Part shown: positions 17,338-37,890 of the stretch, piece after piece
How the letters are laid out: every line of letters starts with the position of its first letter
Numbering within the stretch: the first letter of the stretch is position 1
Origin: Myxococcota bacterium
Lineage (GTDB): Bacteria; Myxococcota_A; UBA9160; UBA4427
NCBI GenBank assembly: GCA_041440805.1
Contig: JASDVF010000036.1
Location: forward strand, 75,179-139,178
Length of the DNA: 64,000 bases
Reading direction: 5' to 3'
Translations under genes and position numbers: made by a program
Notes under the pieces: model-generated
Told to the model about the DNA's origin: nothing
Seen by the model: the letters and a program-made list of their open reading frames with translations, nothing else
The model's database searches: none

Positions 17338-18270
17338 TTGCGCACCGAGACCTCCGCTTCCTCTGCCACTCCCTCCTGCGTTCTCGCCGGCTCCGAATCA
17401 TTGCTTCTGCAGTGCGGCGCTTTGCTGATCGAGAAGGGGTGGGCCATTCAGCGCGTCGTTTCAAAGAACGACGAAATCCTCGACTGGGCTCGGGAAGCAG
17501 GCATAGAAGTCTGTGCTCCTGGTCGCACGTTGGCGGAGGCACTCGGTTCAGTCGACTTCGACTACTTCTTCAGCATCACGAATCTGTCGATCATCTCAGA
17601 TGAGGTGCTGGCTCTCCCGAAGCGTTCTGCAATCAACTTCCATGACGGACCGCTGCCGGCCTACGCCGGGATGCACACGCCGGCCTGGGCGATTCTGAAT
17701 GGCGAGTCCGAGTACGGCGTCACGTTTCATGAAATGACCGGCGGCGTCGATGAAGGACGCATCCTCGTTCAGAAGCGCTTCGAGCTCGGAGGAGACGAAA
17801 CTTCCCTCGGCATCAATACCAGTTGTTATGCGGCGGCCATCGAAGGCTTCGAAGATCTGATCGGTCAGCTCGCGACCGGGCAAACGAATCCGACGGAACA
17901 AGACTTTTCCCAGCGCAGCTATTACGGGCGCCATCAGCGACCGGAAGGCGCCGGCCTGATCGACTTCTCTGCTTCTGCGGAAGTTCTCTCGCGATGGGTT
18001 CGCGCGATGGATTTCGGGGAGCGCTATGCGAATCCCTTCTGCGCTGCGAAGATTGCCCACGGAGGGGAGCTGCTGCTCGTTCGTTCGGCGACGCTCGCTG
18101 ACGCGGAGAGCACGTCTGCGGGCGCGCTCGTGGCGATTGGTGATGATGGGTGGACAGTAGGAACCGGCGACGGTGCGATTCGTCTGAGTGGCTTTAGGTG
18201 CCCTCGCGGCATTGCGCTCACGCCGCAGGAGGCCGCCGCACGGGTGGGGCTCTCGATAGGGCAGTCGATC
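17338..18270 (+). other. Formyltransferase domain (FMT-like N and C subdomains) of the NRPS
   Basis: A candidate catalytic trio of Asn, His and Asp lies in SITN, NFHDG and VDEGRI. A C-terminal beta-barrel-like segment follows (GELLLVRSATL...GAIRLSGFR). Boundaries are approximate. Confidence 0.75.
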
Positions 18271-21200
18271 GGCGCGACCGATGCGCTTGATCGCACGGCG
18301 ATCTCGACGCTAAACGAAACGTTTGCGCCCTCGGAAGCTTTCTGGGTCCGTCGGCTCGCGAGTCTCGATGCGGTCGAAGCGCCGTATCGGAGTGCCGGCA
18401 GTTCTAACAGTGCCGACGGTTCTAAGAGTACCGACGGTTCCAAGAGTGCCGACGGTTCTAATAGTTCCGCTCCGGTGGATTCGGAAGAGCGCCAGGTTGA
18501 ACGATTCGCTTTGGATCCCGCGGCACTGCTACCCGGACTCTCCGGTAGCGAACGACCCGAGGCCTTGATCGCTGGCTTCGCAGTCTATCTATCGCGCCTT
18601 CAGGGCGTTTCGGATTTTGATCTGACCTGGAGCGAAGACGCTCTACACCAGCGAATTGAGGAAGGGGGCCCCCTCTACTCGAAGCGTGTTCCGATGCGAC
18701 TCGCTGTTGCTGCGGATGCGACGGTCTCGGATGTCATGACGGCAGTGCGCACCGAAATCGGAAAGGTGCGCGACAAGGGCACGTTCCTGATCGATGCGGT
18801 CGCGCGCGATCCACGGCTATCCGCTCATCCGATTCTTTCCCGGGCACGTTGGACTTCTGTCACCGTCGGACTTCATGCGGACTCCGAGAGAACGGCCTTG
18901 CCGAAGGGGTCGGATCTTGGACTCTTTGTGAGTCCGTCTGGCGATGCGGCGCATCTTGCTTTTGATCGTGATGCGATCGATGTGACAGATGCTCGCCGAA
19001 TTCTTGATCAGTTGAGCGTGTTGCTTCGGGCGAGTTCTGATGATTCGCTTGCGATTGCGAAGCTGCCCTTGCTTGCGGACGATGAGCGAAGTCGAATTCT
19101 CTACGAATGGAATCAGACCGCCGCGGACTTTGATCGCACGGCCACTGTGGCTTCCCTGTTCGCTGCTCAGGTCGAGCGAACTCCGGACGCGACGGCCCTC
19201 GTCTTTGAGTCCGAAGAACTGAGCTACCGCGAACTCGATGAGCGGGCGACGAGGCTTGCACATCATCTCGTCGGTCTTGGAATCGGCCCCGATCGCTTGG
19301 TTGGACTCCATCTAGCACGGTCCGCCGACATGCTTGTGGGCGTGTTAGGCGTGCTCAAGGCGGGGGGGGCGTATGTGCCCCTTGATCCGGTCTATCCAGG
19401 AGATCGTATCGCCTACATGATCGAGGACTCGAAAGCCTCGGTTGTGGTGACGCATGCCGCAGCTTCGCCGGCACTTCCGTCCTGTGCGGCGGAAATCGTT
19501 GATCTTGACCGAGAGTCGCGCACGATCGCCACGCGGCCTACGTCGCCTTGCGAGACCCAAAGCGGCGCCGAGAACCTTGCATACGTCATATACACCTCGG
19601 GCTCGACGGGTAAGCCCAAGGGCGTGATGGTCGAACATCGCAACGCGGTCAACTTCTTCGTAGGTATGGATGAGCGCGTCCCTCACGATTCGCCGGGCAA
19701 CTGGCTCGCCGTGACGAGTCTTTCATTCGATATTTCAGTGTTGGAGTTGCTATGGACTCTGACGCGTGGCTTCAAGGTCGTCGTCTTTGCGGATCATGAT
19801 CGGGCTATGGGCGAGTCATCTGCTGCGCCTTGGCGCCCGATCGACATGGGTCTTGCGCTTTGGGGCAGCGATGCGGGCCCGGGGCCGCGCAAATATGAGC
19901 TGATGCTCGAGAGCGCAAAGTTCGCCGACGAACGCGGCTTCTGTGCGGTGCATACGCCGGAACGACATTTTGGTGCCTTTGGCGGGCCCTTCCCTAATCC
20001 GTCGGTGACAGGGGCTGCGATCGCTGCAGTGACCAAGCGGGTTCAGATTCGGGCAAGTAGTTGTGTACTGCCGCTGCATCATCCGATCCGCGTCGCGGAA
20101 GAATGGGCGGTTGTCGATAATATTTCGAATGGTCGAGTAGGGATTTCCTTCGCCTCTGGATGGCAGCCTAACGACTTCGTGATTCGTCCGAGTGCCTTCG
20201 CTAATGCGAAGACTTCTATGTTCGAAAGCGCTGAAATCGTTAGGCGTCTCTGGCGCGGAGATGCAGTCGAATTCGAAAATCCGAATGGCACTATGGTGCC
20301 GACTGCGACACTTCCCCGGCCTGTACAAGAAGAGCTGCCGGTTTGGATTACGACGGCCGGCAACGTAGAAACGTTTCGTGCGGCGGGCGCTGCAGGCGTG
20401 AACGTGCTGACGCATCTCCTGGGGCAGCCCCTCGAAGACCTCGAAGAGAAGATCGTTGCCTATCGCCAAGCGGCGGCGGATGCTGGGCACGACCCCAAGA
20501 AGGGCGTTGTCACCTGCATGCTCCACACCTTTGTTGGCGCGGACGATGCAGAGATTCGGCGCATCGTGCGCGAGCCGATGAAGGAATATCTCGGAAGTGC
20601 GATGGCCCTCGTCGTGGACTTCGCTTGGTCCTTCCCGGCGTTTGAACGGCCTGGGGGGCCAGACTCCAAGCCTGAAGATGTCGATCTTAGGTCGCTCTCC
20701 GGAGACGAAATAGACGCGATTCTCGAATTCGCCTTTGAACGTTATTACGAGACGAGTGGACTCTTTGGTACACCAGAAGTCTGCGAGCGGATGCTGCAGC
20801 GCTGCAAGGATGCCGACATCGACGAAATCGCTTGTCTGATCGACTTCGGGGTTGATACGGACGTCGTGCTAGGCGCACTCGAAGCGCTTGATGATGTGCG
20901 AAAGCTTGTGAACGAACGGCCGGTTGATGCCGTCGAGGCGAGTTCCTCGGATGTGCCGACCGCTGATCATTCCTTCGCGTCGCAGGTCGAACAACATTCC
21001 ATCACTCATCTCCAGTGCACGCCGTCCCACGCGACTATGCTGCTCACGAATCCGCAAACACGGGGAGCTTTCGGGCGAATTCCGCATTTGATGATCGGCG
21101 GCGAAGCATTCCCTGTCTCGCTTGCGGCGGAGCTCGATGGCGTCGCAGCTGGAAACGTAACGAATATGTACGGGCCGACGGAGACGACGATTTGGTCGTC

Positions 21201-22143
21201 GACGCAGCCTGTAGCCGGCAGTCCCGAGACGATCTCGATTGGGACACCGATTGCGAATACCCAGCTCTATATTCTCGACGCACATAACGAGCCGCTGCCT
21301 GTTGGAGTGGCCGGTGAGTTGTGGATTGCGGGGGAGGGTGTCGTTCGTGGCTATCACGAGCGTTCGGATCTGACCGATGAGCGATTCGTTCCGGATCCGT
21401 TTAGTGATCGCGATGGCGCGCGCATGTACCGGACAGGTGACCTTGCGCGATGGACCGAAGAAGGGCGCATCGACTTCCTGGGACGTCTCGATCACCAGGT
21501 GAAGATCCGCGGCTACCGGATTGAACTCGGCGAGATCGAAGCTCGGCTGGCTGGCCTGCCGGGTGTTCGCGAAGCGGTCGTGATCGCGCGCGAAGATGTG
21601 TCGGGAGATGTTCGGTTGGTGGGTTATGTGCTCGCCGAAGGCAATAAGATCGACGAGGGCGCGCTTCGTGACGGATTGCGTGAGCACCTACCGGAGTTCA
21701 TGGTTCCGTCGAATCTCGTTCGACTCGATCGCTATCCGCAGACGCCGAACGGCAAAGTGGACCGGAAAGCCTTGCCGGCGCCGAACGAAGTCGGACAGGT
21801 CTCGCAGGCCGTGTTCGTCGCACCCGAGAGTGATCTCGAGGCGCAGATCGCAATGGTCTGGCGCGAGGTGCTCTATCTCGAGCAGGTCGGCGTGAACGAC
21901 AACTTCTTTGACTTGGGCGGGCATTCGCTGCTCGTCGTTCAGGCACATCGCAAGCTAGCGGGAGTGCTGGAAGTTCCGATTACGCTCACAGATCTCTACC
22001 GCTTCCCGACAATCGCTGGCCTTGCGGAACGTCTCTCCAAGGGAGATCGCTCAGCAGAGGTCGCTGCGGCGAGTCGGGGGCGCGGCGACAAGCGACGTCA
22101 GGCGCTGGAGCGTCGACGTCGTCGGGGCGGCAAAAAGGATTGA
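17338..22143 (+). CDS. NRPS loading-type module: formyltransferase - partial condensation-like region - A domain interrupted by a luciferase-like monooxygenase - PCP
   Basis: 1601 aa with a TTG start at 17338 (no in-frame ATG nearby). INFHDGPLPAYAG begins at 17632. A3 YTSGSTGKPKG at 19591, A4 FDISV at 19726, A5 NMYGPTE at 21163. Also YRTGDLARW, GRLDHQVKIRGYRIELGEIE and PNGKVDR. PCP motif FFDLGGHSL with Ser at 21925-21927. Confidence 0.9.
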   Translation: MRTETSASSATPSCVLAGSESLLLQCGALLIEKGWAIQRVVSKNDEILDWAREAGIEVCAPGRTLAEALGSVDFDYFFSITNLSIISDEVLALPKRSAINFHDGPLPAYAGMHTPAWAILNGESEYGVTFHEMTGGVDEGRILVQKRFELGGDETSLGINTSCYAAAIEGFEDLIGQLATGQTNPTEQDFSQRSYYGRHQRPEGAGLIDFSASAEVLSRWVRAMDFGERYANPFCAAKIAHGGELLLVRSATLADAESTSAGALVAIGDDGWTVGTGDGAIRLSGFRCPRGIALTPQEAAARVGLSIGQSIGATDALDRTAISTLNETFAPSEAFWVRRLASLDAVEAPYRSAGSSNSADGSKSTDGSKSADGSNSSAPVDSEERQVERFALDPAALLPGLSGSERPEALIAGFAVYLSRLQGVSDFDLTWSEDALHQRIEEGGPLYSKRVPMRLAVAADATVSDVMTAVRTEIGKVRDKGTFLIDAVARDPRLSAHPILSRARWTSVTVGLHADSERTALPKGSDLGLFVSPSGDAAHLAFDRDAIDVTDARRILDQLSVLLRASSDDSLAIAKLPLLADDERSRILYEWNQTAADFDRTATVASLFAAQVERTPDATALVFESEELSYRELDERATRLAHHLVGLGIGPDRLVGLHLARSADMLVGVLGVLKAGGAYVPLDPVYPGDRIAYMIEDSKASVVVTHAAASPALPSCAAEIVDLDRESRTIATRPTSPCETQSGAENLAYVIYTSGSTGKPKGVMVEHRNAVNFFVGMDERVPHDSPGNWLAVTSLSFDISVLELLWTLTRGFKVVVFADHDRAMGESSAAPWRPIDMGLALWGSDAGPGPRKYELMLESAKFADERGFCAVHTPERHFGAFGGPFPNPSVTGAAIAAVTKRVQIRASSCVLPLHHPIRVAEEWAVVDNISNGRVGISFASGWQPNDFVIRPSAFANAKTSMFESAEIVRRLWRGDAVEFENPNGTMVPTATLPRPVQEELPVWITTAGNVETFRAAGAAGVNVLTHLLGQPLEDLEEKIVAYRQAAADAGHDPKKGVVTCMLHTFVGADDAEIRRIVREPMKEYLGSAMALVVDFAWSFPAFERPGGPDSKPEDVDLRSLSGDEIDAILEFAFERYYETSGLFGTPEVCERMLQRCKDADIDEIACLIDFGVDTDVVLGALEALDDVRKLVNERPVDAVEASSSDVPTADHSFASQVEQHSITHLQCTPSHATMLLTNPQTRGAFGRIPHLMIGGEAFPVSLAAELDGVAAGNVTNMYGPTETTIWSSTQPVAGSPETISIGTPIANTQLYILDAHNEPLPVGVAGELWIAGEGVVRGYHERSDLTDERFVPDPFSDRDGARMYRTGDLARWTEEGRIDFLGRLDHQVKIRGYRIELGEIEARLAGLPGVREAVVIAREDVSGDVRLVGYVLAEGNKIDEGALRDGLREHLPEFMVPSNLVRLDRYPQTPNGKVDRKALPAPNEVGQVSQAVFVAPESDLEAQIAMVWREVLYLEQVGVNDNFFDLGGHSLLVVQAHRKLAGVLEVPITLTDLYRFPTIAGLAERLSKGDRSAEVAAASRGRGDKRRQALERRRRRGGKKD
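18391..18462 (+). repeat. Four tandem 18-bp units encoding S-A/T-D/G-G/S-S-K/N in the NRPS interdomain linker
   Basis: The four units are agtgccggcagttctaac, agtgccgacggttctaag, agtaccgacggttccaag and agtgccgacggttctaat. They translate to SAGSSN SADGSK STDGSK SADGSN. Confidence 0.9.
19789..20960 (+). other. Luciferase-like (FMN-dependent) monooxygenase domain inserted between A4 and A5 of the adenylation domain
   Basis: About 480 aa separate FDISV (19726) from NMYGPTE (21163), against about 80-90 aa in ordinary A domains. The insert carries LLM-type stretches (ESAKFADERGFCAVHTPERHF, NGRVGISFASGW, ACLIDFG). Boundaries are approximate. Confidence 0.75.
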
Positions 22144-22186: not shown

Positions 22187-25100
22187 ATGAGTGATGAGGA
22201 GATCGGCGAGAATGATATCGCGATCGTGGGCATGGCTTTGCGCGTGCCCGGCGCGAATTCGCCGACAGAGTTCTGGGACAATCTTCAGAACAAGCGTGAG
22301 TCTATCGTCGATTACGATGAGGCGACGATGCTTGCTTCGGGTGAGTCCAAAGAAGTGCTCCGCAATCCGGCTTATGTAAGTCGGGGCGGCGCCCTTGAAA
22401 ACATGAAGCTATTCGATCGTGACTTCTTCGGCTTTAGCCCGAAAGAAGCGGCGATCCTTGATCCCCAGCATCGCCACTTCATGGAGCTGTCCTGGGAAGC
22501 GCTGGAGGATGCCGGCCATACGCCGACTAACTTCGACGGACAGATCGGCGTCTTCGCTGGCTGCGGTATGGGCAGCTACTTCTATTTCAACGTATGCAGT
22601 AACCGTGACCTCGTCGATTCGGTCGGGATGTTCCTGCTTCGACATACGGGCAACGACAAAGACTTTCTCGCGACCAGGGTGTCCTACGTCCTCGACCTCA
22701 AGGGGCCGAGTGTCAATGTACAGACGGCGTGTTCGACGTCCCTCGTCGCAACCCATCTCGCTTGCCAGAGTCTGCTCACCGGCGAGTGTGACCTCGCGCT
22801 GGCAGGCGGTGTCACGATCCAGTTCCCGACGGAAGTCGGCTACGTCTACCGGGACGGCGAGATTCTCGCGCCGGACGGCCATTGTCACTCCTTCGACCAT
22901 CGCGCCCAAGGAACCGTGCTTACGAGCGGCGGTGGCGTTGTTTCGTTGCGTCGGCTCGATGACGCGATTAACGATGGCGACAATATTTATGCTGTCATTA
23001 AGGGCTCTGCTGTTAACAACGACGGTGGCAACAAGGTCGGATACCTAGCACCCAGCGTGGATGGTCAGGCTGCGGCCATGACCGAGGCGTACACGCTCGC
23101 AGAAATCGACCCATCGACGATTGGAATGATCGAGTGTCATGGCACAGGCACTTATATGGGAGATCCGATCGAGGTCGCAGCACTCACCCAAGCTTTCCGC
23201 GCAGCGAATGAAGACAGTGACCAGGGCGACCAGTTTTGCCGTATCGGCTCGGTGAAGTCGAATATCGGTCACCTGGACACGGCGGCTGGTGTTGTTGGGC
23301 TGATGAAGGCCGCGCTCTCCCTTAAGCATCATACAATTCCGGCTTCGCTGAATTTCGAGCGACCGAATCCGGAGATCCGATTCACCGATTCTCCCTTCGT
23401 AGTGAATGATGACACGTACCCTTGGGCGGCGAGCAAGACGCCTAGGCGTGCGGCGGTGAACTCTCTTGGAGTCGGTGGCACGAATGCACATGTCGTCCTT
23501 GAAGAGCACGCATCGGCGGTGACGGCGAACGAAGATGTTTCGCGCGCGCGATTGCTGCAGATATCGGCCAAGAATAAGCGATCGCTCGATGGCGCATGTG
23601 CCCGTCTTAAGACGCACCTAGAGGCGAATCCCGACCTTTCGCTTGGGGATGTCGCCTGGTCTCTGCGTGAGACGCGAGAGAACTTCGAGACACGACGCGT
23701 GTTAGTGGCGAAGGATCGCGAACAGGCTCTTGAGTTGCTCGCGGGACTCGATCCGAGGCGTGTCTTTACGCATAGCGCGGCGGACATCCGAGCCTCGATC
23801 GTGTTCATGTTCTCGGGTGGCGGGAGCCAGTATCCCGGCATGGGCCGAGGCCTTTACGAGAGCGAGCCGATTTTCCGGCAGCATGTTGATCGTGGGTTAG
23901 AACTCTATCGCGAGCGCACGGGATTTGACCTGCGCAGCCTCGTGTTCTGTGATCCGAATCGCGTTGAGCAGGCAGATGGACCTTTGACCGATATGAGTCG
24001 CCAGCTTCCGGCGATCTTCATCGTCGAGTACGCGATGGTGGAGCTTTGGAAGAGCCGCGGTATTGAGCCCTCTCTTCTGATCGGCCACAGCATGGGCGAG
24101 AACGCCGCCGCGTGTATCGCAGGCGTCGTGACCTTCGAGGAATGTCTAGACTGGCTCATTCTGCGAGGACAGCTTTTTGAGAAGACGCCGACGGGTGGCA
24201 TGATCGCGGTTTCGCTCCCGGCGGATGATCTCGTTCCGTACTTGGAAGATTCCTGCGACCTCGCGGCGAGCAATGCGCCTGGCCTAAGTGTGGCTTCTGG
24301 CGGTGTCGCCGAGATCGATGCGCTGGAGAAGCGTCTCGAAGAAGCGGAAATTGACTTTCAGAGAGTCTCGATCGAACGTGCGGCGCATTCGCGACTGCTC
24401 GATCCGATCCTCGATGAGTTCCGGTCATTCGTTGAGAAACTCGATCTCAAAGCGCCGTCGATTCCTTTTATCTCGAATCGAACCGGAGAGCGTATTAGCG
24501 ATAAAGATGCGATAAGCCCCGAGTATTGGGTTCAGCATCTGCGCAACGAAGTGCGCTTTTCGGAAGGGCTCCGCACTATTCTCGCGACGCCCGGACAGAT
24601 TCTTCTCGAAGTGGGACCCGGCCAAGCGCTTTGCAGTTATGCGCGTCAGCAAACCGCACAAGGCGCCTCGACGAACGTGATTCCGTCGCTTCGTCATAAA
24701 GCAGATTCTATCTCCGACGCCGAGTATCTACTCTCGACGATCGGACGGCTCTGGGCTTCGGGGGCGGATGTCGAGCTCGATTCGCTCTACGAGGGCGAGA
24801 CGCGGCGTCGCGTTAGGCTGCCTACCTACACATGGGATCATCAGAGTTATTTCATTGAGCGCGTTGAGGCGGATCTTACCGAGAAGGACTCGGGGCTACC
24901 GGAGCATCTCGAAGATGTGACCGATTGGGGCTTCGCTCCAACCTGGCCGGTGACAGCGCTCGATCCTCGCCAGATTGAGGTTCCCCAGACCTGGCTCATT
25001 TTCATGGACCAAGTCGGAATCGGCCGGCGCTTAAAGACGCGACTAGAAGACGCGGGACATTCGGTCGTCAGCGTCTTTGTCGCCGATAGCTATCGCAAAC

Positions 25101-28100
25101 GTTCTGCCGATGAATATTCGCTTTCGCCCGAGTTAGGCGCGGAAGGGTATTCGGCCCTGATGCGGGATCTCGCCGCCGAAGGTCGGATGCCGACACAGAT
25201 CGTGCATCTTTGGCTGACCTCCGATGTTGAACGCTTTCGTCCCGGATCGAGCTTCTTCCACGAAAACCTCCAGAATGGCTTTTATAGTCTCTACTTCCTG
25301 GCGCGGGCGCTCGCGAACGAGAGCCTGCCCGGCGATGTACACCTAACGGTCGTCTCGAATGGGTTGCAGTCGATTCTTGAGGGCGATGGTCCGCTCTATC
25401 CTGCGAAGGCGACCGTGCTTGGTCCCGTCGAGGTGATTCCGCGCGAGTTGCCTGGTGTGACCTGCAAGAGCGTTGACATCACGCTGCCGCTCAAGGGGCA
25501 AGCGGCTTTGCGCGAACGCTTCTTGGGTCGGCGGAAGAGCGTTGGCGCTCGTCCCGCGAATCTTGATGACGTGACAGATCAACTCGAGCGCGAAGTGCTC
25601 GCCGCCTCAGAATGCGACATCGTCGCGCACCGCGGGGGTGAGCGTTATGCACGGCGCTTCGAAGCTCGCCCACTGCCCGAGCGCACAGGGGATTCGAACG
25701 CATCCCTCGTTGATGAGGGCACCTACCTCATCACGGGCGGTCTAGGCGGCCTTGGATTCACCCTGGCGGATCGACTCGCACGAGAAGTTCGTGGCGCGAA
25801 GCTCGTCTTGGTGGGGCGTACGGCATTACCCGATCCGTCGGAATGGGAGGCCCTGGAGCGAAACGGCGGAGCATCGTCTCGCGATCTAGGCTGCATTCGT
25901 CGTATACGAGGACTCGAAGCGGCCGGTGCAGAGGTAATGACCTTGGCCGCGGACGTGACGAATTTCGATGAGATGCGTCGCGGTATCGATGCCGTGCGTG
26001 AGCGCTTCGGCAAAGTTCACGGCGTGTTCCATGCGGCAGGTGTTGTTGCAGACGAACTCATTCAGTTGAAGACCGATGCCGCTATCGAGCGCGTCTTCGG
26101 GCCGAAGGTGCACGGCACGCAGGTGCTTGCCAGTTTGCTCGAAGAAGCGGGCGCGGAACTTCTCGTTCTTTATTCCTCGACGAGTGCGATTACGGCGCCG
26201 CCTGGACAGGTGGACTACGCCGCAGCGAATTCTTTCCTGGATGCCTTCGCTCAGAGCCGCAAGGACCATCCTATTCGAACGCTCGCGGTGAACTGGGGCA
26301 TTTGGAATGAAGTCGGGCTCGCTGCCGCTTCCCTCGATCGGAACAAGGAGACGCACGGAGCCGAACAGGCCTACGCCGTCCAGCATCCCCTCTTTGATAC
26401 TCGGGAACAAGACTCCCACGGTCGTACAGCCTTCTTCAAGAGCTTTTCCCCGCAACGGGATTGGGTACTCGAAGAACATCGAACAGCGAACGGCGAAGCC
26501 CTCTACCCGGGAGCGGGTTACCCGGAGCTCGCGCGAGCAGCTCTAGCTGAATACGGCGAAACGGGTCCTTTCGAGATTCAGGATCTCTACTTCCTTAGGC
26601 CGCTCTATGTGCCGGACGGAGAAGTTCGTGATGTGCGAGTGCTGCTCGAACCGAACGATCTCGGCTACCGCTTCAGCGTCCGAACACGTCATAGAGTAGA
26701 GGGCCGGCCGGCGTGGATGCTGACCGCCGAAGCAACGCTCATATTAGGCGAAGGGGCACCCTCGCGTACTGTCGACCTTGATGAGATTGACGCGCGATGT
26801 GGAGCCCAGCGCTCCCACGTAAATCCCCTCGGACATGCGTCCGGTCAGGAGAACCATGTTCGCTTCGGGCCGCGGTGGCGCGTGTTGCGGCAGGTTTTGT
26901 ATGGGGAAGCTGAAGCGCTCGCATATCTCGAGGTGCCCGATGAGTTCGAAGGAGATCTAGAGGACTTTCAATTTCATCCGGCTCTGCTCGACTACGCGAC
27001 CGGATACGCGATGGGGCTCATCCCCGGCTATGACCCGAATGGCGCACTCTGGATTCCTGTTTCTTACGGAAGCATCAAGCTCGAAGCACCTCTCGAAAAG
27101 AAGATCAGTAGTTGGGTCCGCTTGCGAAATGGTGACGAGGCCGGCGGCTTCGCGTCTTTCGATATCGTGATCACGTCTGACGACGGTCGCGTGCTCTTCG
27201 AAGCCGAAGACTTCACGATTAAGCGCGTCGAAGGCGAAGTGGACTTCTCCGAGCCCGTCGACGGAAACGCTAGCGACATAGAGTTCGAAGCTTCGAATCA
27301 AGCGAAGGGCGACGATGATCTCTCTCCGGCGGAGCTGCACCTGCGGCGAAACTACGAGGTAGGGATTGGCCCAGAGGAAGGCACCGAGGCTCTCATGCGC
27401 GTCCTTGCTACCGACTCGGGGCCGCAAATGGTCGTGACGTCGATCAATCTTGACTATCTGATTCGTCAGGCAGACACGGTCGTCGCAGAGTCATCGAATA
27501 GCGGCGCGCGCTTCGAACGTCCCGCCCTCGACAGCGAATACGAAGCGCCGCGTGATGAGATCGAAAAAACGCTCGGGGCTTTATGGGAAGACTTGCTAGG
27601 TGTTGATGGTCTCGGGATTTACGACAACTTTTTTGATCTAGGCGGACATTCGCTGATTGCGGTTCGTTTCTTTACGAAGATTAAGAAGGCCTACCGGGTC
27701 GACTTCCCGATCTCGATTCTCTTCGAGGCGCCTACCATTGAGGGCTGCGCGGAACTGATTCGGGAGACGATCGGCGATGACTCTTCCCGCGCAGTTGGGG
27801 CGAGCGAAGAGGATGGCACGGCAGCGACGCGTCGAACTCGCTTCAAGCATCTTGTTGCGATGGATGCGGGAGGCGGCGCAGGTGGCCCAAATAAACCTTT
27901 CTTTCTGGTCGCGGGCATGTTTGGCAACGTTTTGAATCTGCGTCATCTCGCAGCGCTCGTGGGCACGGATCGACCGTTCTACGGCCTACAAGCGCGTGGG
28001 CTCTATGGGGATGAAAAGCCTCACGAGACGTTCGAAGAGATGGCCTCGACGTACATCGAAGAGATTCGACAGGTGCAGCCGGAAGGCCCCTACACGATTG

Positions 28101-28690
28101 GCGGGTTCTCGGGCGGCGGCATCACTGCTTTCGAGATGGCGCATCAGCTTCAGGCGGCTGGTGAGACTGTGCAGAGTGTCGTCCTATTGGACTCGATTCT
28201 GCCACAGCTTCCGCCGCTTACCGCGATGGACCGGATTCGTGTGCAGGCTATGCGGCTTAAGCAGCGCGGTGCTGGCTATTTGTGGGAATGGGTACGCAAC
28301 CGCGCGAAGTGGCAGATGGAACAACTCGAGGCGCGCTTTAGTGACGGCTCCGAAGATGTGCGTGCAGAGGATGAGTTCCATGATGTTCAGATCGAGCGAG
28401 CATTCCGAGCGGCGCTGCCGATTTACCCCATGCAGCGCTACGAAGGGCATGTGCATCTCTTTCGACCTAAGCTTGACCGTGCCTATGTACTCGGTCCCGA
28501 TCGTATTCTTAACAGCGACAAACAATGGATCTACGCGGACAACGGTTGGGGACAATGGGTCGAGTCAATCGAGACTTATGAGATGCCCGGTAATCACGAC
28601 AGCATGGTGCTCGAACCGAACGTTCGTGTGATGGCTTCGCGCTTGCGAGAACTGCTCGAAGCGAAGCCAGGCGATGTGAAAGACCGGTAG
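22187..28690 (+). CDS. Type I polyketide synthase, KS-AT-KR-DH-carrier-TE
   Basis: 2167 aa.
- KS: Cys in TACSTS at 22730, plus ECHGTGT and GHLDTAAG.
- AT: GHSMGE with Ser at 24089; second motif is AAHS.
- KR: GTYLITGGLGGLG at 25718, with YSSTS...YAAAN.
- DH: HRTANGEALYPGAGY with His at 26477, plus HPALLDYATGY.
- Carrier: FFDLGGHSL with Ser at 27650.
- TE: GFSGGG, with a distal GNHDS. Confidence 0.9.
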   Translation: MSDEEIGENDIAIVGMALRVPGANSPTEFWDNLQNKRESIVDYDEATMLASGESKEVLRNPAYVSRGGALENMKLFDRDFFGFSPKEAAILDPQHRHFMELSWEALEDAGHTPTNFDGQIGVFAGCGMGSYFYFNVCSNRDLVDSVGMFLLRHTGNDKDFLATRVSYVLDLKGPSVNVQTACSTSLVATHLACQSLLTGECDLALAGGVTIQFPTEVGYVYRDGEILAPDGHCHSFDHRAQGTVLTSGGGVVSLRRLDDAINDGDNIYAVIKGSAVNNDGGNKVGYLAPSVDGQAAAMTEAYTLAEIDPSTIGMIECHGTGTYMGDPIEVAALTQAFRAANEDSDQGDQFCRIGSVKSNIGHLDTAAGVVGLMKAALSLKHHTIPASLNFERPNPEIRFTDSPFVVNDDTYPWAASKTPRRAAVNSLGVGGTNAHVVLEEHASAVTANEDVSRARLLQISAKNKRSLDGACARLKTHLEANPDLSLGDVAWSLRETRENFETRRVLVAKDREQALELLAGLDPRRVFTHSAADIRASIVFMFSGGGSQYPGMGRGLYESEPIFRQHVDRGLELYRERTGFDLRSLVFCDPNRVEQADGPLTDMSRQLPAIFIVEYAMVELWKSRGIEPSLLIGHSMGENAAACIAGVVTFEECLDWLILRGQLFEKTPTGGMIAVSLPADDLVPYLEDSCDLAASNAPGLSVASGGVAEIDALEKRLEEAEIDFQRVSIERAAHSRLLDPILDEFRSFVEKLDLKAPSIPFISNRTGERISDKDAISPEYWVQHLRNEVRFSEGLRTILATPGQILLEVGPGQALCSYARQQTAQGASTNVIPSLRHKADSISDAEYLLSTIGRLWASGADVELDSLYEGETRRRVRLPTYTWDHQSYFIERVEADLTEKDSGLPEHLEDVTDWGFAPTWPVTALDPRQIEVPQTWLIFMDQVGIGRRLKTRLEDAGHSVVSVFVADSYRKRSADEYSLSPELGAEGYSALMRDLAAEGRMPTQIVHLWLTSDVERFRPGSSFFHENLQNGFYSLYFLARALANESLPGDVHLTVVSNGLQSILEGDGPLYPAKATVLGPVEVIPRELPGVTCKSVDITLPLKGQAALRERFLGRRKSVGARPANLDDVTDQLEREVLAASECDIVAHRGGERYARRFEARPLPERTGDSNASLVDEGTYLITGGLGGLGFTLADRLAREVRGAKLVLVGRTALPDPSEWEALERNGGASSRDLGCIRRIRGLEAAGAEVMTLAADVTNFDEMRRGIDAVRERFGKVHGVFHAAGVVADELIQLKTDAAIERVFGPKVHGTQVLASLLEEAGAELLVLYSSTSAITAPPGQVDYAAANSFLDAFAQSRKDHPIRTLAVNWGIWNEVGLAAASLDRNKETHGAEQAYAVQHPLFDTREQDSHGRTAFFKSFSPQRDWVLEEHRTANGEALYPGAGYPELARAALAEYGETGPFEIQDLYFLRPLYVPDGEVRDVRVLLEPNDLGYRFSVRTRHRVEGRPAWMLTAEATLILGEGAPSRTVDLDEIDARCGAQRSHVNPLGHASGQENHVRFGPRWRVLRQVLYGEAEALAYLEVPDEFEGDLEDFQFHPALLDYATGYAMGLIPGYDPNGALWIPVSYGSIKLEAPLEKKISSWVRLRNGDEAGGFASFDIVITSDDGRVLFEAEDFTIKRVEGEVDFSEPVDGNASDIEFEASNQAKGDDDLSPAELHLRRNYEVGIGPEEGTEALMRVLATDSGPQMVVTSINLDYLIRQADTVVAESSNSGARFERPALDSEYEAPRDEIEKTLGALWEDLLGVDGLGIYDNFFDLGGHSLIAVRFFTKIKKAYRVDFPISILFEAPTIEGCAELIRETIGDDSSRAVGASEEDGTAATRRTRFKHLVAMDAGGGAGGPNKPFFLVAGMFGNVLNLRHLAALVGTDRPFYGLQARGLYGDEKPHETFEEMASTYIEEIRQVQPEGPYTIGGFSGGGITAFEMAHQLQAAGETVQSVVLLDSILPQLPPLTAMDRIRVQAMRLKQRGAGYLWEWVRNRAKWQMEQLEARFSDGSEDVRAEDEFHDVQIERAFRAALPIYPMQRYEGHVHLFRPKLDRAYVLGPDRILNSDKQWIYADNGWGQWVESIETYEMPGNHDSMVLEPNVRVMASRLRELLEAKPGDVKDR

Positions 28691-28828
28691 GAGCAGTAGG
28701 GAACTAGAGTAGGTCGCCGAGAGGCGCTGTGAGTACAGACTGATTGAGCGGAGCGATTGCTCTAGTTCGATCGAACTGAAGATGCCGGAGTGGGTGTAAC
28801 CCTCCGACTCGAATTGGGAACGGAGACC

Positions 28829-29965
28829 ATGGGCGAGATTTCGGATGCCCTTGCTAGGGCGCAAGAGGCCGAAAAAACAAAGCGTCCCGTTGAGCCGCGT
28901 GAAACACCGCCGCTCGCCGAGGAACGCGAACGCCCGCATTCCGCTTTGATGCGGGAAGCGGCGGATGCACCTCCAGCATCTCCGCCTCCAGTCTCGAAGA
29001 GATCCGCGCCTCCTTCAGAGGGCTGCGTTTCGACATCTTCATCACCGTCTTCATCATCCCGGTCGTCGACCGCGCGCGCGGATGAGACCGAGAGAACGAA
29101 TGAAGTTGGCCCGTCCGAAGCGGTGGTTGAAGCCGATCCTGTGGTCCCTGCGCCCGGCGTAGCTTCTTCGCTTAGCCACGGATTGGAGCAGGCCGATGAC
29201 CGCACGAAAAAGCGACATCAGATCTCAACGCCCCGTGCCGACGGGTGGATCGGCCGGATCTGCGCGGTTGAGCCTGAGGCCGATGCGTCCGTACGCTTCC
29301 GCCATCTGGCTGTGCGTATGCGTTCGATGTTGGACGGCCGCCGGCAGCCTTCAGTCCTGGTAACGAGCTCGTTTTCTGGGGAAGGCAAGACGACGGTATC
29401 CTGCAATCTCGCGATTGCGCTCGCTTCGATTTCGCCGGAATGCCGGATCGCGCTAGTCGATATGGATCTTCATAGAGGCTGTGTTTCTCGGACGATGAAT
29501 TATTCAGGGCAGGTCGGGATCGAGGACGTGATGCGAGGCGATGCTTCGCTCAGTGACGCGTGCGTCGAAACCGAGATGCCGGCACTCGATTTCTATCCGG
29601 TCTGCAATCCGGTCCAAGATGCGCATGGACTGTTAGGCGGTGCCGCAGGACGGACCTTGGAAAATTTTCACGCGCGTTACGACTACGTGATTTGTGACGG
29701 TCCGCCCGTACTTCCGGTGCCCGACGTGCCTTTGATCGCGCCGCACGTGGGTGGTTGTTTGGTCGTCGCTGCGTCGGGACGCTCACGACATAGAGCCTTC
29801 AGAGAGACACTTAGTCTGATCCCACGTGGGATGACGCTTGGGGTGTTCCTGAACGAGAATCCCGGCGCGCTTCGCTCGCGGAGCTACAAATACTATTCCG
29901 GTTCGCGGCCGGAGGACTCTGATTCCGGCGTCGACGCGGACGGCGTCGAGGAGGCGAATCGATGA
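28829..29965 (+). CDS. Polysaccharide-locus tyrosine autokinase (BY-kinase, EpsG-like)
   Basis: ORF 28790-29965. Preferred ATG is at 28829 (MGEISDALARA). Walker A is SGEGKTT, Walker A' is LVDMDLHRG, Walker B is YVICDGPPV. C-terminal Tyr cluster SYKYYSG. The N-terminal region of about 150 aa is Pro/Ser-rich. Confidence 0.8.
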   Translation: MGEISDALARAQEAEKTKRPVEPRETPPLAEERERPHSALMREAADAPPASPPPVSKRSAPPSEGCVSTSSSPSSSSRSSTARADETERTNEVGPSEAVVEADPVVPAPGVASSLSHGLEQADDRTKKRHQISTPRADGWIGRICAVEPEADASVRFRHLAVRMRSMLDGRRQPSVLVTSSFSGEGKTTVSCNLAIALASISPECRIALVDMDLHRGCVSRTMNYSGQVGIEDVMRGDASLSDACVETEMPALDFYPVCNPVQDAHGLLGGAAGRTLENFHARYDYVICDGPPVLPVPDVPLIAPHVGGCLVVAASGRSRHRAFRETLSLIPRGMTLGVFLNENPGALRSRSYKYYSGSRPEDSDSGVDADGVEEANR

Positions 29966-31419
29966 GTCGGTCGGCCGACTTCGACGACTTCGGGGATAGC
30001 GGCGATGCGGAGGAATCCGGCGCATTGCCCGGATTCGTAACCGATCCCGTCGGTGTCCTTAAGCGACGCTGGATGTGGATGGTGCCAGTTCTGCTGATTG
30101 GCGCTGTGTTGAGTGGCTACTATTTGTATCAGCGGAGTCCCGAGTTCGCGGCGCGTGCGACGATTCTCGTTTCGAGTCAGAAAATCTCGCAGCAGTTCTT
30201 TATTTCGACGATCGAATCCGATCAGCTCGAGAAGGTCAGCGCGATTCTCGGCGAGTTGCTGTCCCGCAAGAACCTCGCGAAACTCGTAGCTCAGCACGAT
30301 CCGTACTCTGTGGTTGGCGACGTCGAAGTCCTTACGCTCGAAGATAAAATCGGAATCATGCGCAGTCGGATCGTGATCGGACCCGACCGCAGGAACGCTG
30401 CGAACTTCGACGAAAACAGTTCCGCAACGGTATTTGAAGTGCGCTTTGCCTCCGGTGATGCGCAGAAGACTGCCGACATCGTGAATGCCCTAGCGACCGG
30501 ATTCACTGATATCCACCTTCGCATGCGGAGTCGGCAAGCGCGCCTAACGACTGATTTCCTTCGAGCCGAGCAAGAGCAGGCTGAAGAAGACCTCTCTCGC
30601 CAAGAGCGCAAAATTACGGAATTCAAGAAGAGGTATCGCGGTGAGCTTCCGAGCGAACTCGCGACGAGTTTGGGTCGGCTCGATCGGTTGCAGAGCCAGA
30701 GGCAGTCCCTCGCTTTGCAGATCGCGGAAACAGAAAGCCGCCTGGCTTCGCTGGCTGCGAGCGGGAATGACGTCGAGCTGGACTCTCCTGAGGCGCTGCT
30801 CCGATCCCTCAGGACCCGGTATAAGTCACAGCGTTCGCTGTATACGGAAGAACATCCGAATCTGGTGGCTATTCGGCGTCAGATAGAGAACCTAAAGGCG
30901 CAGATTGCCGAGGATGGGATCGAGGTTCCGCTTGAGGCGGAGCAGGCGACGACGCTTGCCGGCGCGGCGCGATTTACTCTGACCGAGTTGCGACGACAAC
31001 TCGCCCAGACCGAGACTGAATTCGAAGTTCTCGATCGCCGTGTGGCTCTGGTTCCGGAGCGCCAAGAAGAGTTGGCGGGCCTTGAACAGCGCGCCGAATT
31101 TCTGCGAGAGAATCATAGAGAGCTCCTGCGTAAGGTGGGTCAAGCAGAGCTTGCGCAGGCGGTTGAGTCGGCGCAGCAGGGCGAGCGTGCGACTGTGATC
31201 GACAGAGCAGTGACGCCGATGCGACCCGATTCGTCTCCGCTTAAGATGTTAGTGGTGCTGATTGTCGGAACTTTCGGTGCCGCGATCGCATTGGCGATCC
31301 TGCTTGAGTTGGTTGATCCAGTGATCGTGAGTGCGAGCGAGATCGAGGCGAATTACCGAGTTCCTGTGATCGGGTCGATTCCGCGACTGGATGATACCGG
31401 GAGCGGGCAGCGCGGCTGA
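29962..31419 (+). CDS. Chain-length determinant (Wzz/GumC/EpsF-like)
   Basis: 485 aa. N-terminal TM followed by a Wzz-type segment (FAARATILVSSQ), a long coiled-coil periplasmic region, and a C-terminal TM. The start overlaps the kinase stop by 4 nt. Confidence 0.8.
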   Translation: MSRSADFDDFGDSGDAEESGALPGFVTDPVGVLKRRWMWMVPVLLIGAVLSGYYLYQRSPEFAARATILVSSQKISQQFFISTIESDQLEKVSAILGELLSRKNLAKLVAQHDPYSVVGDVEVLTLEDKIGIMRSRIVIGPDRRNAANFDENSSATVFEVRFASGDAQKTADIVNALATGFTDIHLRMRSRQARLTTDFLRAEQEQAEEDLSRQERKITEFKKRYRGELPSELATSLGRLDRLQSQRQSLALQIAETESRLASLAASGNDVELDSPEALLRSLRTRYKSQRSLYTEEHPNLVAIRRQIENLKAQIAEDGIEVPLEAEQATTLAGAARFTLTELRRQLAQTETEFEVLDRRVALVPERQEELAGLEQRAEFLRENHRELLRKVGQAELAQAVESAQQGERATVIDRAVTPMRPDSSPLKMLVVLIVGTFGAAIALAILLELVDPVIVSASEIEANYRVPVIGSIPRLDDTGSGQRG

Positions 31420-32229
31420 TGGCTGAGGTCGCGAGCGATCCCCTCGCTCCGAAGAGCGAATCACCGCTTTGGCTAGCCGCGATCGCGTTTGGACTGATGG
31501 CCGCTTTCTGGCCGGTCGTGTCCGATCTAGGGCGCCATGTTGTGGTCCATCCATGGGCGCGCGGTGCAATTGTCTTTCCCTTGCTCGTCTGGATAGCGGT
31601 TCGTGCTGAGGCGGCAAAGGCGGGGCCGGAGCGCCGCTGGGTCTTATGGTTGGCTTTGCCGATAGCGTTGGCCATCGAGTTAGTCGCAGTCGCCGGTGAC
31701 GTAGTGCGCCTCGGGCGAGTGGCTCTGGTTCTTGCGGCTGCAGCAAGCCTCTTCGCAACGGGTAGAGCGGGGTTATTGACCCTTGCGCTCACGCTCTGGC
31801 TGATTCCCTTGCCTTCCGCCATTGCAGGAATTCTGAGTCCGAGCCTCGAATCAACATGGGCACAGATCGCCGCATCTCTGATAGTAGGAGTTTCTTTCGC
31901 GGCGGGTCCGGAGGGTCCCATGCTATCGACGGAGGCGGGCGGGCGTGTGTTGCTGGTGCCGGCCGATGGCGGGCTTGGCCTGGTTTCAGGAGCTGATGCG
32001 GAGACTCCCCATGCATAGGCTTATGGGTCGCTCTGTAATGGCCGCGCTCTTTTCGCTCCCAATTCATCTAGGAGTGATTGGGCTCGCTACGATTGTGTTG
32101 TCGTTATCGCCCATGGGTTTGGTCGCGCAAAGGCTCCTCGATCAGGGGCCGTGGCTGATCGTGGTCTTGGCAGGGCTCGTGCTCGCCGTGCGTGATCGCG
32201 TGCCCAATACTGCAGGAGAGACGAGTTGA
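31419..32229 (+). pseudogene. Exosortase (EpsH/Xrt)-like polytopic membrane protein, split over two overlapping frames (31419-32018 and 31945-32229)
   Basis: Sits directly upstream of the EpsI gene and is coupled to it. The N-terminus has an exosortase-like shape (WPVVSDLGRHVVVHPWARGAIVFPLLVWIAVR). Combined length is about 270 aa. The 199-aa ORF contains no Cys. The second frame continues with TM helices. Confidence 0.5.
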
Positions 32230-32897
32230 ACCGACGTGTCGAGTTAGGCGTAGCGATCGGGTTGATGCTCCTCACGGGCATCGCCTCGTGGTGGCTTTTG
32301 CTTCGTCCCATCGTTGAGCATGACGCAGCGGTATTTGATGCTTTGCCCACCGAATTGAACGGATGGCGATCTGTTGATCTCACGATCGATCAGGCCGTCT
32401 CGGATATGTTGGCGGCGGATCACAACGTGCAGCGCGCCTACCTTCATCCCCTTGGCTACCTAATTTTCGTTTACGTAGGCTACTACGGCACCGAACGCGG
32501 AGGGACCCCGGAGCACACTCCTGACATTTGCTATCCGGCACAAGGATGGCAGATCGTAGAGTCAATGATTCAGAGGGCCGGCGGGCAGGGCGGCTTCGAT
32601 CTCCGCGAGTTCGTTGTGGAGCAGGCAGGGGAGCGCCGGCTGGTGCATTACTGGTATCGGACCGGAAGCGAGAGCGGGTTGACCTCTGTGGTTGGACTTA
32701 GACTCCGTCACGTTCTCGATCGCATGACCGAAAAACGGGGGGACGGGGCGCTCGTTCGACTCAGTACGCCGCTTGGCAGCTCAGATATCGCAAGTGCCCG
32801 AACTCGGCTCTTTTCGATGGGTCGCGTCGTTGAAGAAGCGCTTGTGGGTCTCTGGCCTAACGACAGTCAATCTGTCGCCGTATTGTCAGGGCACTGA
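32226..32897 (+). CDS. epsI: EpsI-family exosortase-associated protein
   Basis: 223 aa with a TTG start overlapping the upstream stop (TTGA). N-terminal TM, then LPTELNGW...VYVGYYGTERGG..EHTPDICYPAQGWQI...LVHYWY, which matches the EpsI pattern. Confidence 0.8.
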   Translation: MNRRVELGVAIGLMLLTGIASWWLLLRPIVEHDAAVFDALPTELNGWRSVDLTIDQAVSDMLAADHNVQRAYLHPLGYLIFVYVGYYGTERGGTPEHTPDICYPAQGWQIVESMIQRAGGQGGFDLREFVVEQAGERRLVHYWYRTGSESGLTSVVGLRLRHVLDRMTEKRGDGALVRLSTPLGSSDIASARTRLFSMGRVVEEALVGLWPNDSQSVAVLSGH

Positions 32898-32901
32898 CTC
32901 G

Positions 32902-33579
32902 ATGTCTACAAAGAGCGGGGCGGAGAGCGAATTTTCGAAGCTGACTCACGGCTTCGTCGATCCTGAATTCTGGGTAGAGGCCTCGTCGCTTCGATACGGG
33001 ATTGGGGATCTCGCGCCCGCCGAACGACCTTTAGCAGAGAAGGCAATCGCCTCGCGACAGCGCGAATTCGCGACGGGCCGCGTGCTCGCACACCGTTTGC
33101 TCGATCAAGCGGGGCACGAGGCCTCAGCGTTGTTGCGAGACGAGGACCGCGTGCCCGAGTGGCCGTCTGGGATCGTAGGATCGATCACGCATTGCGATTC
33201 TCTTTGCGTGGTGGCAGTAGGGAGCAACGAGACCCATGCTGGGGTAGGGCTCGATGTTGAGCCGGATGAGCCGGTCTCTTCGGGTGTCGAACGCGTGGTG
33301 TGTCGGCCTGAGGAAGGCCCGTGGCTCGATGGCGCGTCCGATGATGAGGACCGCGCTCGACGGGTTCGACTCATCTTCAGCGTGAAAGAAGCGACCTACA
33401 AGGCATTCTATCCCGAGCTTCGAACGTTCTGGAGTTTTCAGGACGTTCATGTCGCAGTCGACGAATCAGCCGAGCGATTTATTGCCCATTTGCCGGACGG
33501 GCCAGACGTGCGCGAAATTGAGGGTCGCGTACTGCGGCGGCGTGGCTGGATTCTCTCAAGCGTTTGCCGCCGAAGGTAG
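32902..33579 (+). CDS. 4'-phosphopantetheinyl transferase (EntD/Sfp type)
   Basis: ORF 32773-33579. The ATG at 32902 lies 4 nt after the EpsI stop. Motifs are REFATGR, GSITHCDSLCVVAV, GLDVEP and FSVKEATYKAF. Confidence 0.85.
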   Translation: MSTKSGAESEFSKLTHGFVDPEFWVEASSLRYGIGDLAPAERPLAEKAIASRQREFATGRVLAHRLLDQAGHEASALLRDEDRVPEWPSGIVGSITHCDSLCVVAVGSNETHAGVGLDVEPDEPVSSGVERVVCRPEEGPWLDGASDDEDRARRVRLIFSVKEATYKAFYPELRTFWSFQDVHVAVDESAERFIAHLPDGPDVREIEGRVLRRRGWILSSVCRRR

Positions 33580-35057: not shown

Positions 35058-35215
35058 GAATTTCCCCGAATGATCTCTTGGTTGCCTGCGTGTGTGCCCT
35101 AATCGGAACCTAAATGAAACGTGCCGACCCGACGGAGTGTATCCGTCTTGGATCGGCGCGTCATTTTGCCGAGGTATCGCCACCCTAGCGAGACACGCTC
35201 TAGCCCCAAGTCGAG

Positions 35216-37794: not shown

Positions 37795-37890
37795 GCCCGT
37801 CCAGTTCAGTCGATTCGGCTAACGCAGGGGACAGTGGTCGCTGGCACTTCGCATTGATTCGTTTTCCGGAAGCGACGTCTTCAGGACGTC

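Follow-up and report, generated by a model that had tools for sequence, protein, structure and literature searches.

A polyketide synthase with ketoreductase ahead of dehydratase in a Myxococcota polysaccharide locus is a member of an orphan four-gene cassette and may extend a glycine-derived starter once

The 'conserved Roseobacter NRPS/PKS cluster', which consists of a non-ribosomal peptide synthetase (NRPS), a polyketide synthase (PKS), a glycosyltransferase plus a phosphopantetheinyl transferase (PPTase), is attributed to Martens et al. 2007 (PMC4337385; PMC5014874). It was found in 28 of 57 roseobacter genomes with its product uncharacterised (PMC4337385), and a further report likewise describes the product as uncharacterised (PMC5014874). 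In Escherichia coli, the PKS module of ClbB adds one malonyl unit to an alanine-derived intermediate and processes the beta-carbon (PMC5490422). Modules of the type F-A(Gly)-PCP, i.e. a formyltransferase (F), a glycine-specific adenylation (A) domain and a peptidyl carrier protein (PCP), give an N-formylglycine starter to the PKSs of oxazolomycin and conglobatin (PMC4504003), and an assembly-line monooxygenase domain in myxothiazol biosynthesis alpha-hydroxylates a glycine residue, giving a terminal amide at off-loading (PMC9396620). Here we analyse a PKS gene (22187..28690) and its partner NRPS from a Myxococcota bacterium (assembly GCA_041440805.1). The window, i.e. the whole stretch of DNA analysed, spans 64,000 nucleotides (positions 75,179 to 139,178 of contig JASDVF010000036.1, forward strand), and all coordinates below are those of the window. 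An earlier note on this DNA had read the PKS as a lone module with its ketoreductase (KR) before its dehydratase (DH), and had taken this order to mean that the module may act iteratively on an NRPS-derived starter. We lean, with modest confidence, towards a conventional, non-iterative NRPS-to-PKS pair that would carry out one extension of an N-formylglycine starter and is encoded in an orphan four-gene cassette.

The open reading frame (ORF) of the PKS divides into a ketosynthase (KS), an acyltransferase (AT), the KR, the DH, a carrier and a thioesterase (TE) as follows.

22187..28690, + strand: PKS ORF, 2167 aa, KS-AT-KR-DH-carrier-TE
22211..23359, + strand (residues 9-391): KS with Cys182, His318 and His362 (Pfam; homologue alignment)
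Residues 393-519, + strand: KS-AT linker (Pfam)
23801..24742, + strand (residues 539-852): AT with Ser635, Arg660 and His734, AAHS replacing HAFH (Pfam; alignment)
24923..25486, + strand (residues 913-1100): structural (N-terminal) subdomain of the KR (PF21394 at 937-1100; NCBIfam 'KR prefix' NF047870 at 913-995)
25718..26311, + strand (residues 1178-1375): catalytic KR with GGxGxxG loop, Lys1307, Tyr1344 and Asn1348 (Pfam; alignment)
26384..27238, + strand (residues 1400-1684): double-hotdog DH with His1431, and Asp1602 in HPALLD (Pfam; alignment)
27572..27760, + strand (residues 1796-1858): carrier, FFDLGGHSL with Ser1822 (Pfam PP-binding)
27920..28597, + strand (residues 1912-2137): type I TE, GFSGGG with Ser1975, and His2137 (Pfam; alignment)

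The domain order given in the earlier note was exact, as were the positions of its KR and DH motifs: on re-reading, GTYLITGG runs from nucleotide 25718 (residue 1178) and the DH histidine lies at nucleotide 26477 (residue 1431). The note had also seen no DH between AT and KR, and this holds; the stretch aligns with solved KRs (MlnE 5d2e; 6ulw) in their structural subdomain, and a hidden DH at this place was rejected on that account. The converse possibility, that the called KR is merely structural and a true KR follows the DH, was rejected as well, as all KR catalytic residues are present and Pfam finds no KR 3' of the DH in the PKS. The V-x-D motif of the KR (V-A-D here, its Asp invariant in 115 homologues) suggests that the domain is probably B-type. 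The DH comprises PKS_DH_N (1400-1501) and PS-DH (1557-1684) by Pfam. Its histidine motif had been given the canonical spacing Hx3Gx4P, which does not stand: the motif is H-R-T-A-N-G-E-A-L-Y-P, i.e. Hx4Gx4P, with one extra residue that is seen in alignments to 7tzl and the PksJ DH and is a trait of the family (present in 41 of 48 such motifs recovered from the comparison set).

More than 100 full-length homologues of about 2150-2270 aa were returned by a database search, with an essentially identical Pfam domain set and with hosts among the Myxococcota (including Sandaracinus amylolyticus), the Planctomycetota and Sulfidibacter corallicola; 115 sequences of 50-77% identity were aligned for a check of residues. 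Conserved across these 115 are the KS Cys/His/His, the AT GHSxG with its Arg at +25 and its His, the KR Lys/Ser/Tyr/Asn together with the NADPH (Rossmann) loop, the DH His and the HPALLD Asp, the carrier FFDLGGHSL with its Ser, and the Ser of the TE GFSGGG; the TE His is invariant in a separate alignment of 7 sequences. The KS Cys-His-His and the in-cis AT with GHSxG, Arg and His are those of a cis-AT modular PKS. Two traits are specific to the family, namely [IV]AAHS in the AT, where related PKSs read HAFHS, and HRTxxGxxLxPG in the DH. This degree of conservation indicates that the architecture is real, intact, functional and under selection.

The same order of KR and DH is found in ClbB, for which Pfam gives A-PCP-KS(591-961)-AT(1109-1382)-KR(1699-1870)-DH(1906-2158)-ER-ACP (ER, enoyl reductase; ACP, acyl carrier protein). 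The sequences of ClbB and ClbI were taken from the clb island of E. coli Nissle, which was reached through a search of E. coli DNA with the KS-AT region whose sole match was 107 bp in clbI. BLASTP gives a single collinear alignment between the window PKS and ClbB (residues 11-1660, 31% identity), and the two share the arrangement KS-AT-KR-DH after an NRPS module over some 1650 residues, as well as a similar pattern of KS-AT profile scores. ClbB differs in that it has an ER, is fused with its NRPS module in one protein, lacks a TE, and carries the AT motif HAFHS and the canonical DH motif Hx3G. Because ClbB has this order and extends once, KR-before-DH is not by itself a sign of iteration: the order is shared with PfaA, PKSE and HglE, and ClbB has it too, hence it does not discriminate.

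Further examples come from multimodular lines. The protein P0037 reads KS-AT-KR-ACP-KS-AT-KR-DH, with KR-DH in module 2 and at least one carrier stretch left unplaced by Pfam; a Blastocatellia protein reads FAAL-ACP-C-A-T-KS-AT-KR-DH-ACP, and a Kitasatospora protein KS-AT-KR-DH-ACP (both by Pfam). Plasmid PKSs of Streptomyces and Planktothrix that are encoded beside NRPS genes have the KR-DH segment matched in order, by tblastn only. The KR-DH order recurs as a variant among ordinary hybrid modules, and ClbB is its characterised precedent.

The KS-AT region points the same way. Its best solved match is 8xjy/8xju (699 bits, 41.5% identity), the sequence of which is ClbI, and ClbC, a trans-AT KS (7zma), CurL and DEBS modules follow. 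ClbI is similar also in its carrier motif and in being annotated as a stand-alone PKS whose gene lies directly downstream of the NRPS gene clbH, and differs in its composition (KS-AT-ACP, with no KR, DH or TE) and in the AT motif HAFHS. As a comparison with iterative enzymes we used the PfaA profile (TIGR02813) with ClbI and ClbB as controls: the KS-AT of the window scores 326 bits, that of ClbI 337 and that of ClbB 293, and the whole window PKS reaches 391 bits against a cut-off of 1010. Judged by these scores, the window KS-AT is no closer to synthases of polyunsaturated fatty acids (PUFA) than are the single-extension modules ClbI and ClbB. PfaA, the enediyne PKSE and HglE resemble the window PKS in that KR precedes DH and no ER is present in the same protein, but PfaA and PKSE have one or more ACPs between AT and KR and PKSE a fused PPTase; in the window PKS Pfam finds no ACP between AT and KR, the sole carrier after the DH, and no fused PPTase domain. 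A Pfam scan of ORFs to about 50 kb gave no gene for a KS/chain-length factor, a FabA-type DH, an ER or an enediyne-type partner.

The carrier had been called PCP-like and thus unusual for a PKS. The first part stands, in that its best solved matches are PCPs of NRPSs (AB3403, PvdL, SrfA-C and TycC, the PCP chains of TycC reaching about 70 bits), and the ClbI ACP scores 57 bits against it. The second part does not: the ClbI ACP reads FFEAGGHSL and the P0037 ACPs FFDLGGNSL, and because these have it, a 'PCP-like' motif is normal for this lineage of PKSs. Taken together, nothing specific points to iteration, while sequence alone cannot count extensions.

The partner NRPS ends 43 nt before the start of the PKS and is organised as a loading enzyme.

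17338..22143, + strand: loading NRPS, 1601 aa, formyltransferase-C-lobe-A(LLM)-PCP (Pfam, NCBIfam)
17548..18231, + strand (residues 71-298): formyltransferase, N and C subdomains, with N-x-H and Asp (Pfam)
18562..19137, + strand (residues about 409-600): condensation-domain C-lobe (PDB matches to the C-lobes of Txo2, Txo1, TycB and PvdL)
19159..21756, + strand (residues 608-823 and 1211-1473): A domain, split between A4 and A5 (two AMP-binding stretches, Pfam)
19882..20901, + strand (residues 849-1188): MupA/Atu3671-family FMN-dependent luciferase-like monooxygenase (LLM) inside the A domain (TIGR04020; Pfam Bac_luciferase)
21844..22035, + strand: NRPS carrier (PCP), after which comes a basic, conserved tail (Pfam)

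The A-domain code, read by hand at the anchors FDxS, GGE, NxYGPTETT and the A10 Lys, is DILQMGMIWK, close to DILQLGLIWK, which we take to be the code for glycine. In 42 partner proteins 8 of the 10 positions are 100% conserved, position 299 varies, and the A10 Lys517 is 97% conserved; judged by this code, the substrate is almost certainly glycine. None of the same 42 proteins deviates in the formyltransferase residues N, H and D, and the glycine would probably be N-formylated. The LLM scores 474 bits on TIGR04020 (cut-off 244), and the starter may possibly be oxidised. In the myxothiazol-type enzymes (MtaG, MelG) the monooxygenase domain is likewise built into the assembly line, and in MtaG it is luciferase-like and interrupts the glycine A domain at the same place, after A4 and before A5; the monooxygenase of the window differs from that of myxothiazol in belonging to the first, starter module, with a PKS to follow, and not to off-loading. 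No HHxxxDG N-lobe lies beside the C-lobe remnant, and NRPS residues 301-611 have no Pfam match. As in OzmO and CongA, a formyltransferase, a glycine A domain and a PCP stand ahead of a KS, and on these points the window NRPS would be placed with them; it differs in the A domain split by a monooxygenase and in the C-lobe remnant between F and A. A cyclodehydratase of the OzmP/CongE type is not among the four recurrent genes of the cassette, and an oxazole is therefore not predicted.

Pfam finds no release domain in the NRPS. Its basic tail (22036-22143, of the type RRRxMRARR) and the acidic N-terminus of the PKS (22187-22216), the short peptide MSDEEIGEND, are conserved across phyla, which is consistent with a docking pair. 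The adjacent NRPS that lacks a release domain, and the complementary termini, are in keeping with the earlier suggestion that the PKS would receive an NRPS-derived starter. In Paracoccus marcusii pCP157_02 (L090, 15794-20385), the formyltransferase is annotated as a protein of its own (339 aa, overlapping the start of the A/LLM/PCP protein), which is either a natural split or a frameshift.

From the domain order, the intact catalytic residues, the glycine code, the conservation of the cassette and its polysaccharide setting, we propose the following route. The NRPS would activate glycine and load it on its own PCP, where the formyltransferase domain would N-formylate the tethered residue and the monooxygenase embedded in the A domain would probably hydroxylate its alpha-carbon. 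With the basic tail docked on the acidic N-terminus of the PKS, the KS would accept the (hydroxy)formylglycyl unit, the AT would charge the C-terminal carrier with a malonyl-type extender, and a single decarboxylative condensation would follow. The B-type KR would then reduce the beta-keto group and the DH would dehydrate the product to a 2-enoyl thioester (4-formamido-but-2-enoyl), from which the TE would release a C4 enoyl acid, either through hydrolysis or by passing the unit to a glycan-linked acceptor that the neighbouring glycosyltransferases would make. It is plausible that the product feeds into a surface glycan.

The choice of extender is less clear. AAHS, at residue 732, had been picked out as an unusual second AT motif, and it is indeed specific to the family; it is shared with the two best solved matches of the AT alone, the ZmaA AT (4qbu, 219 bits) and 5yda (210 bits), while the CurL and ClbI ATs read HAFHS at that position. 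We take the ZmaA AT to use hydroxymalonyl-ACP and the 5yda AT benzylmalonyl-CoA; the ZmaA AT differs from that of the window in its active site (GYS rather than GHS). As both of these ATs carry AAHS, the remark on this motif is a real lead. No extender-unit pathway (e.g. of FkbH type) is conserved with the cassette.

The genes that complete the cassette lie on either side of the NRPS-PKS pair.

15697..16713, - strand: family 2 glycosyltransferase (GT2), divergent, cassette member (Pfam)
32902..33579, + strand: Sfp-type PPTase, cassette member (Pfam, NCBIfam; ORF opens at 32773)

As listed (from 32773), this ORF overlaps the end of the preceding epsI gene; the ATG at 32902 gives 225 aa, and relatives have 216-232 aa. 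A comparison of the GT2 with solved structures gave no match. Representative genomes were scanned with an alignment of the KR-DH-carrier-TE half of the PKS, plasmid records were added, and 86 loci were counted, 43 of which hold a complete PKS. The order AT-KR-DH is kept in all but one of these 43 (42/43), and 39 of them have a formyltransferase/LLM NRPS no more than 10 kb from the PKS. Among the 39 NRPS-PKS loci, 31 have an orthologue of the GT2 (39-61% identity) and 30 a PPTase. Full-length matches of 40-49% identity occur in Rhodobacteraceae (Roseovarius, Sulfitobacter, Roseivivax, Tabrizicola, Paracoccus and others), Ilumatobacteraceae, Agarilytica, a metagenome-assembled genome (MAG) of the Chloroflexota and Sphingomonadaceae, and plasmid matches in Ruegeria, Tateyamaria, Aminobacter, Shinella and Rhizobium. 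The cassette is present in at least seven phyla; beyond the roseobacters, it is carried on plasmids of Rhizobiales and occurs in Myxococcota, Planctomycetota, Acidobacteriota, Actinomycetota, Chloroflexota and one gammaproteobacterium.

All four cassette genes are present in the window, and in roseobacter genomes and plasmids their orthologues likewise lie together. The window and the Roseobacter cluster agree in the four genes, in the domain order of the PKS, in the NRPS with formyltransferase-A(Gly)/LLM-PCP, and in the 40-49% identity over KR-DH-carrier-TE. They differ in gene order, which is NRPS-PKS...PPTase with a divergent GT2 here and PKS-GT2-NRPS-PPTase in roseobacters, in the Myxococcota host, and in the exosortase, EpsI, Wzz-like and kinase-like genes that lie between PKS and PPTase in the window. 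By gene content and similarity, the window locus is a member of the orphan four-gene cassette first noted in roseobacters. An NRPS-like/type I PKS hybrid gene cluster with no or low similarity to MIBiG entries was reported from Roseibaca by genome mining in 2023 (PMC10584327), and we presume it to be the same cluster.

Several points weigh against a single extension of N-formylglycine as we have drawn it. The literature that we found names no product for the family, which was reported as unidentified in 2015 and 2016 (PMC4337385; PMC5014874). The closest solved structures to the formyltransferase are ArnA (78 bits) and sugar N-formyltransferases, with the F domain of LgrA at 22 bits, and the domain could act on an amino sugar and not on glycyl-S-PCP. 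The AAHS motif means that the extender may not be plain malonyl-CoA, and single modules can iterate. In S. amylolyticus (L001), no formyltransferase NRPS is encoded within 10 kb of the PKS, which is flanked instead by a stand-alone A-domain protein (60% identity to that of the window) and an AurF-like gene (58%). A second locus (L023) likewise has orthologues of the A-domain and AurF-like genes and no formyltransferase/LLM match; this locus is 12.7 kb long and its PKS match starts at base 3. The genes in question lie together in the window.

3778-8147, - strand: stand-alone A-domain protein (553 aa), 90-aa ORF, AurF-like di-iron oxygenase and hypothetical gene

These genes may be an alternative supply of starter or extender. 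By eye, the 90-aa ORF beside the A-domain gene resembles a DltC-type carrier; L001 has an 86-aa ORF between its AurF-like and A-domain genes, and also an orthologue of the hypothetical gene (7023-8147).

That the module iterates in the manner of PUFA, enediyne or heterocyst-glycolipid synthases, building a conjugated unsaturated chain on the NRPS starter before release by the TE, is in our view improbable. A KR followed by a DH is, by established knowledge, common to those synthases, the module has KR and DH with no ER and ends, as a lone module, in a TE, and its DH histidine and AT motifs are non-canonical and family-specific. ClbB, however, extends once with the identical KR-DH order (PMC5490422), and the order recurs inside collinear multimodular lines. 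By similarity the KS-AT falls closest to ClbI, ClbC and CurL, the PfaA profile scores (326-391 bits) stay far below the cut-off, with the KS-AT on a level with ClbI and ClbB (337 and 293 bits), and the AT-KR ACP, fused PPTase and pfaB-D-like partners of such systems are absent from the ORFs scanned. The inference from KR-before-DH to iteration in the earlier note is not supported, given ClbB, the multimodular precedents, and the KS-AT similarity and profile scores together.

Two other explanations concern the NRPS. In a route like that of myxothiazol, to which we give little credence, an alpha-hydroxylated N-formylglycyl-S-PCP would lose formamide to leave glyoxylyl-S-PCP, and one extension with KR and DH action would yield a 4-oxobut-2-enoyl product, a reactive aldehyde and Michael acceptor, either released or attached to polysaccharide. 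The LLM does interrupt a glycine-type A domain, between its motifs A4 and A5, the N-formyl group would provide the N-acyl-glycine type of substrate for such chemistry, and the myxothiazol monooxygenase domain cleaves its glycine residue via alpha-hydroxylation (PMC9396620). That enzyme works at off-loading, however (PMC9396620), and the domain of the window is in a loading module; alpha-hydroxyglycine amides are also fairly stable in the absence of a lyase. It is more doubtful still that the NRPS does not prime the PKS at all, so that the two would make separate substituents of one glycan or the PKS would take its starter from the A-domain/carrier pair at 3778-5711. The loci L001 and L023, where the PKS has A-domain and AurF orthologues for company and no formyltransferase NRPS was found, speak for such a separation, as does the resemblance of the formyltransferase to sugar formyltransferases. 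Against it, 39 of the 43 full loci, across at least seven phyla, have the NRPS next to the PKS or no more than 10 kb from it, and the gene gap of 43 nt, the conserved, complementary charged termini and the NRPS with no release domain count on the same side. The conventional NRPS-to-PKS pair with one extension is the reading that we retain.

The setting of the cassette bears on the fate of its product. In the window it stands inside a large polysaccharide locus with GT4, GT2 and Alg13/14-like transferases, a Wzy-like membrane protein, an XrtA/PEP-CTERM-type amidotransferase and a GDP-mannose dehydratase, and four genes separate the PKS from the PPTase.

28790..32897, + strand: tyrosine-autokinase-like protein, Wzz-like chain-length determinant, exosortase and EpsI, between PKS and PPTase

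The gene order from PKS to PPTase is identical in three Myxococcota-type MAGs. EpsI scores 107 bits on TIGR02914, the matches to XrtA-type kinase-like and chain-length models are below their cut-offs, and the exosortase is recognised by Pfam; with its genes for polysaccharide export and chain length, the region has the make-up of an exosortase/EpsI locus. Elsewhere the neighbours of the cassette are Wzx and Poly_export in Planctomycetota, WecG, a GT2 and a Wzy-like gene in Sulfitobacter, a flippase, a GMC oxidoreductase, a short-chain dehydrogenase/reductase (SDR) and EpsE on P. marcusii pCP157_02, and a DegT aminotransferase, a sugar transferase and a VPLPA-CTERM protein on a Ruegeria plasmid; the GMC/SDR/flippase trio is common to P. 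marcusii pCP157_02 and a Myxococcota MAG. The Agarilytica and Ilumatobacteraceae loci have no glycan-gene neighbours. Exosortase linkage as a general rule was rejected, with EpsI present only in three Myxococcota-type loci (two of them with an exosortase match). The association with glycan genes is therefore frequent, not universal, and the exosortase linkage is lineage-specific.

We put forward only tentatively, and as somewhat unlikely, a more specific proposal, in which the cassette would be a cross-phylum module and not an antibiotic cluster, making a formylglycine-derived C4 acyl unit, maybe with a non-malonyl extender, at which the ZmaA-like AAHS of the AT hints, that is attached to or primes a Wzx/Wzy-type surface polysaccharide, and that in this lineage would be wired into an exosortase/EpsI operon.

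Some further observations concern individual genes of the locus. The exosortase gene (31419-32228) looks frameshifted near 31966-31985, being split into a 199-aa ORF and then a 68-aa ORF; alignment with relatives (279-286 aa) holds in one frame to about 31982 and moves to the next frame for the stretch from about 31966 to about 32220. Either a pseudogene or a fault in the assembly may lie behind this. The window EpsI matches the generic EpsI model best and, next, the C-terminal domain of XrtD (the VPLPA-CTERM exosortase). Two crude regular-expression scans found no credible CTERM-sorting substrates in the window; on the plasmid of Ruegeria sp. SCSIO 43209 (L088), a VPLPA-CTERM protein (22894-23580) is encoded 2.3 kb downstream of the cassette NRPS. 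A second gene that is possibly broken, an FG-GAP repeat gene at 37795-39211, has an ORF of 256 aa against 586-587 aa in relatives, with upstream stops in every frame. On the - strand at 33639-36490 lie an aldo-keto-reductase/4Fe-4S fusion, with a weak, sub-threshold match to a twin-arginine (TAT) signal, and a 424-aa, unannotated ORF, both of which are kept beside the cassette in three Myxococcota-type MAGs. A fatty-acid hydroxylase encoded at the margin of the polysaccharide locus (70-1113, - strand) is weakly similar to the ornithine-lipid hydroxylase OlsE. A scan of 16.5-33.8 kb for promoters and terminators gave counts equal to chance and was uninformative, with no terminator in the gap between the PKS and kinase genes.

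The cassette has been known as an orphan since 2007, and the PKS of the window adds one member to that family. For PKSs at large, the comparison with ClbB indicates that KR-before-DH order alone should not be taken as the mark of iterative synthesis. For the family itself, the ordinary nature of this domain order, the glycine starter and the habitual setting in polysaccharide loci make the search for a product more concrete: predicted masses can be looked for, and cell-surface glycans as well as culture extracts are the places in which to look.

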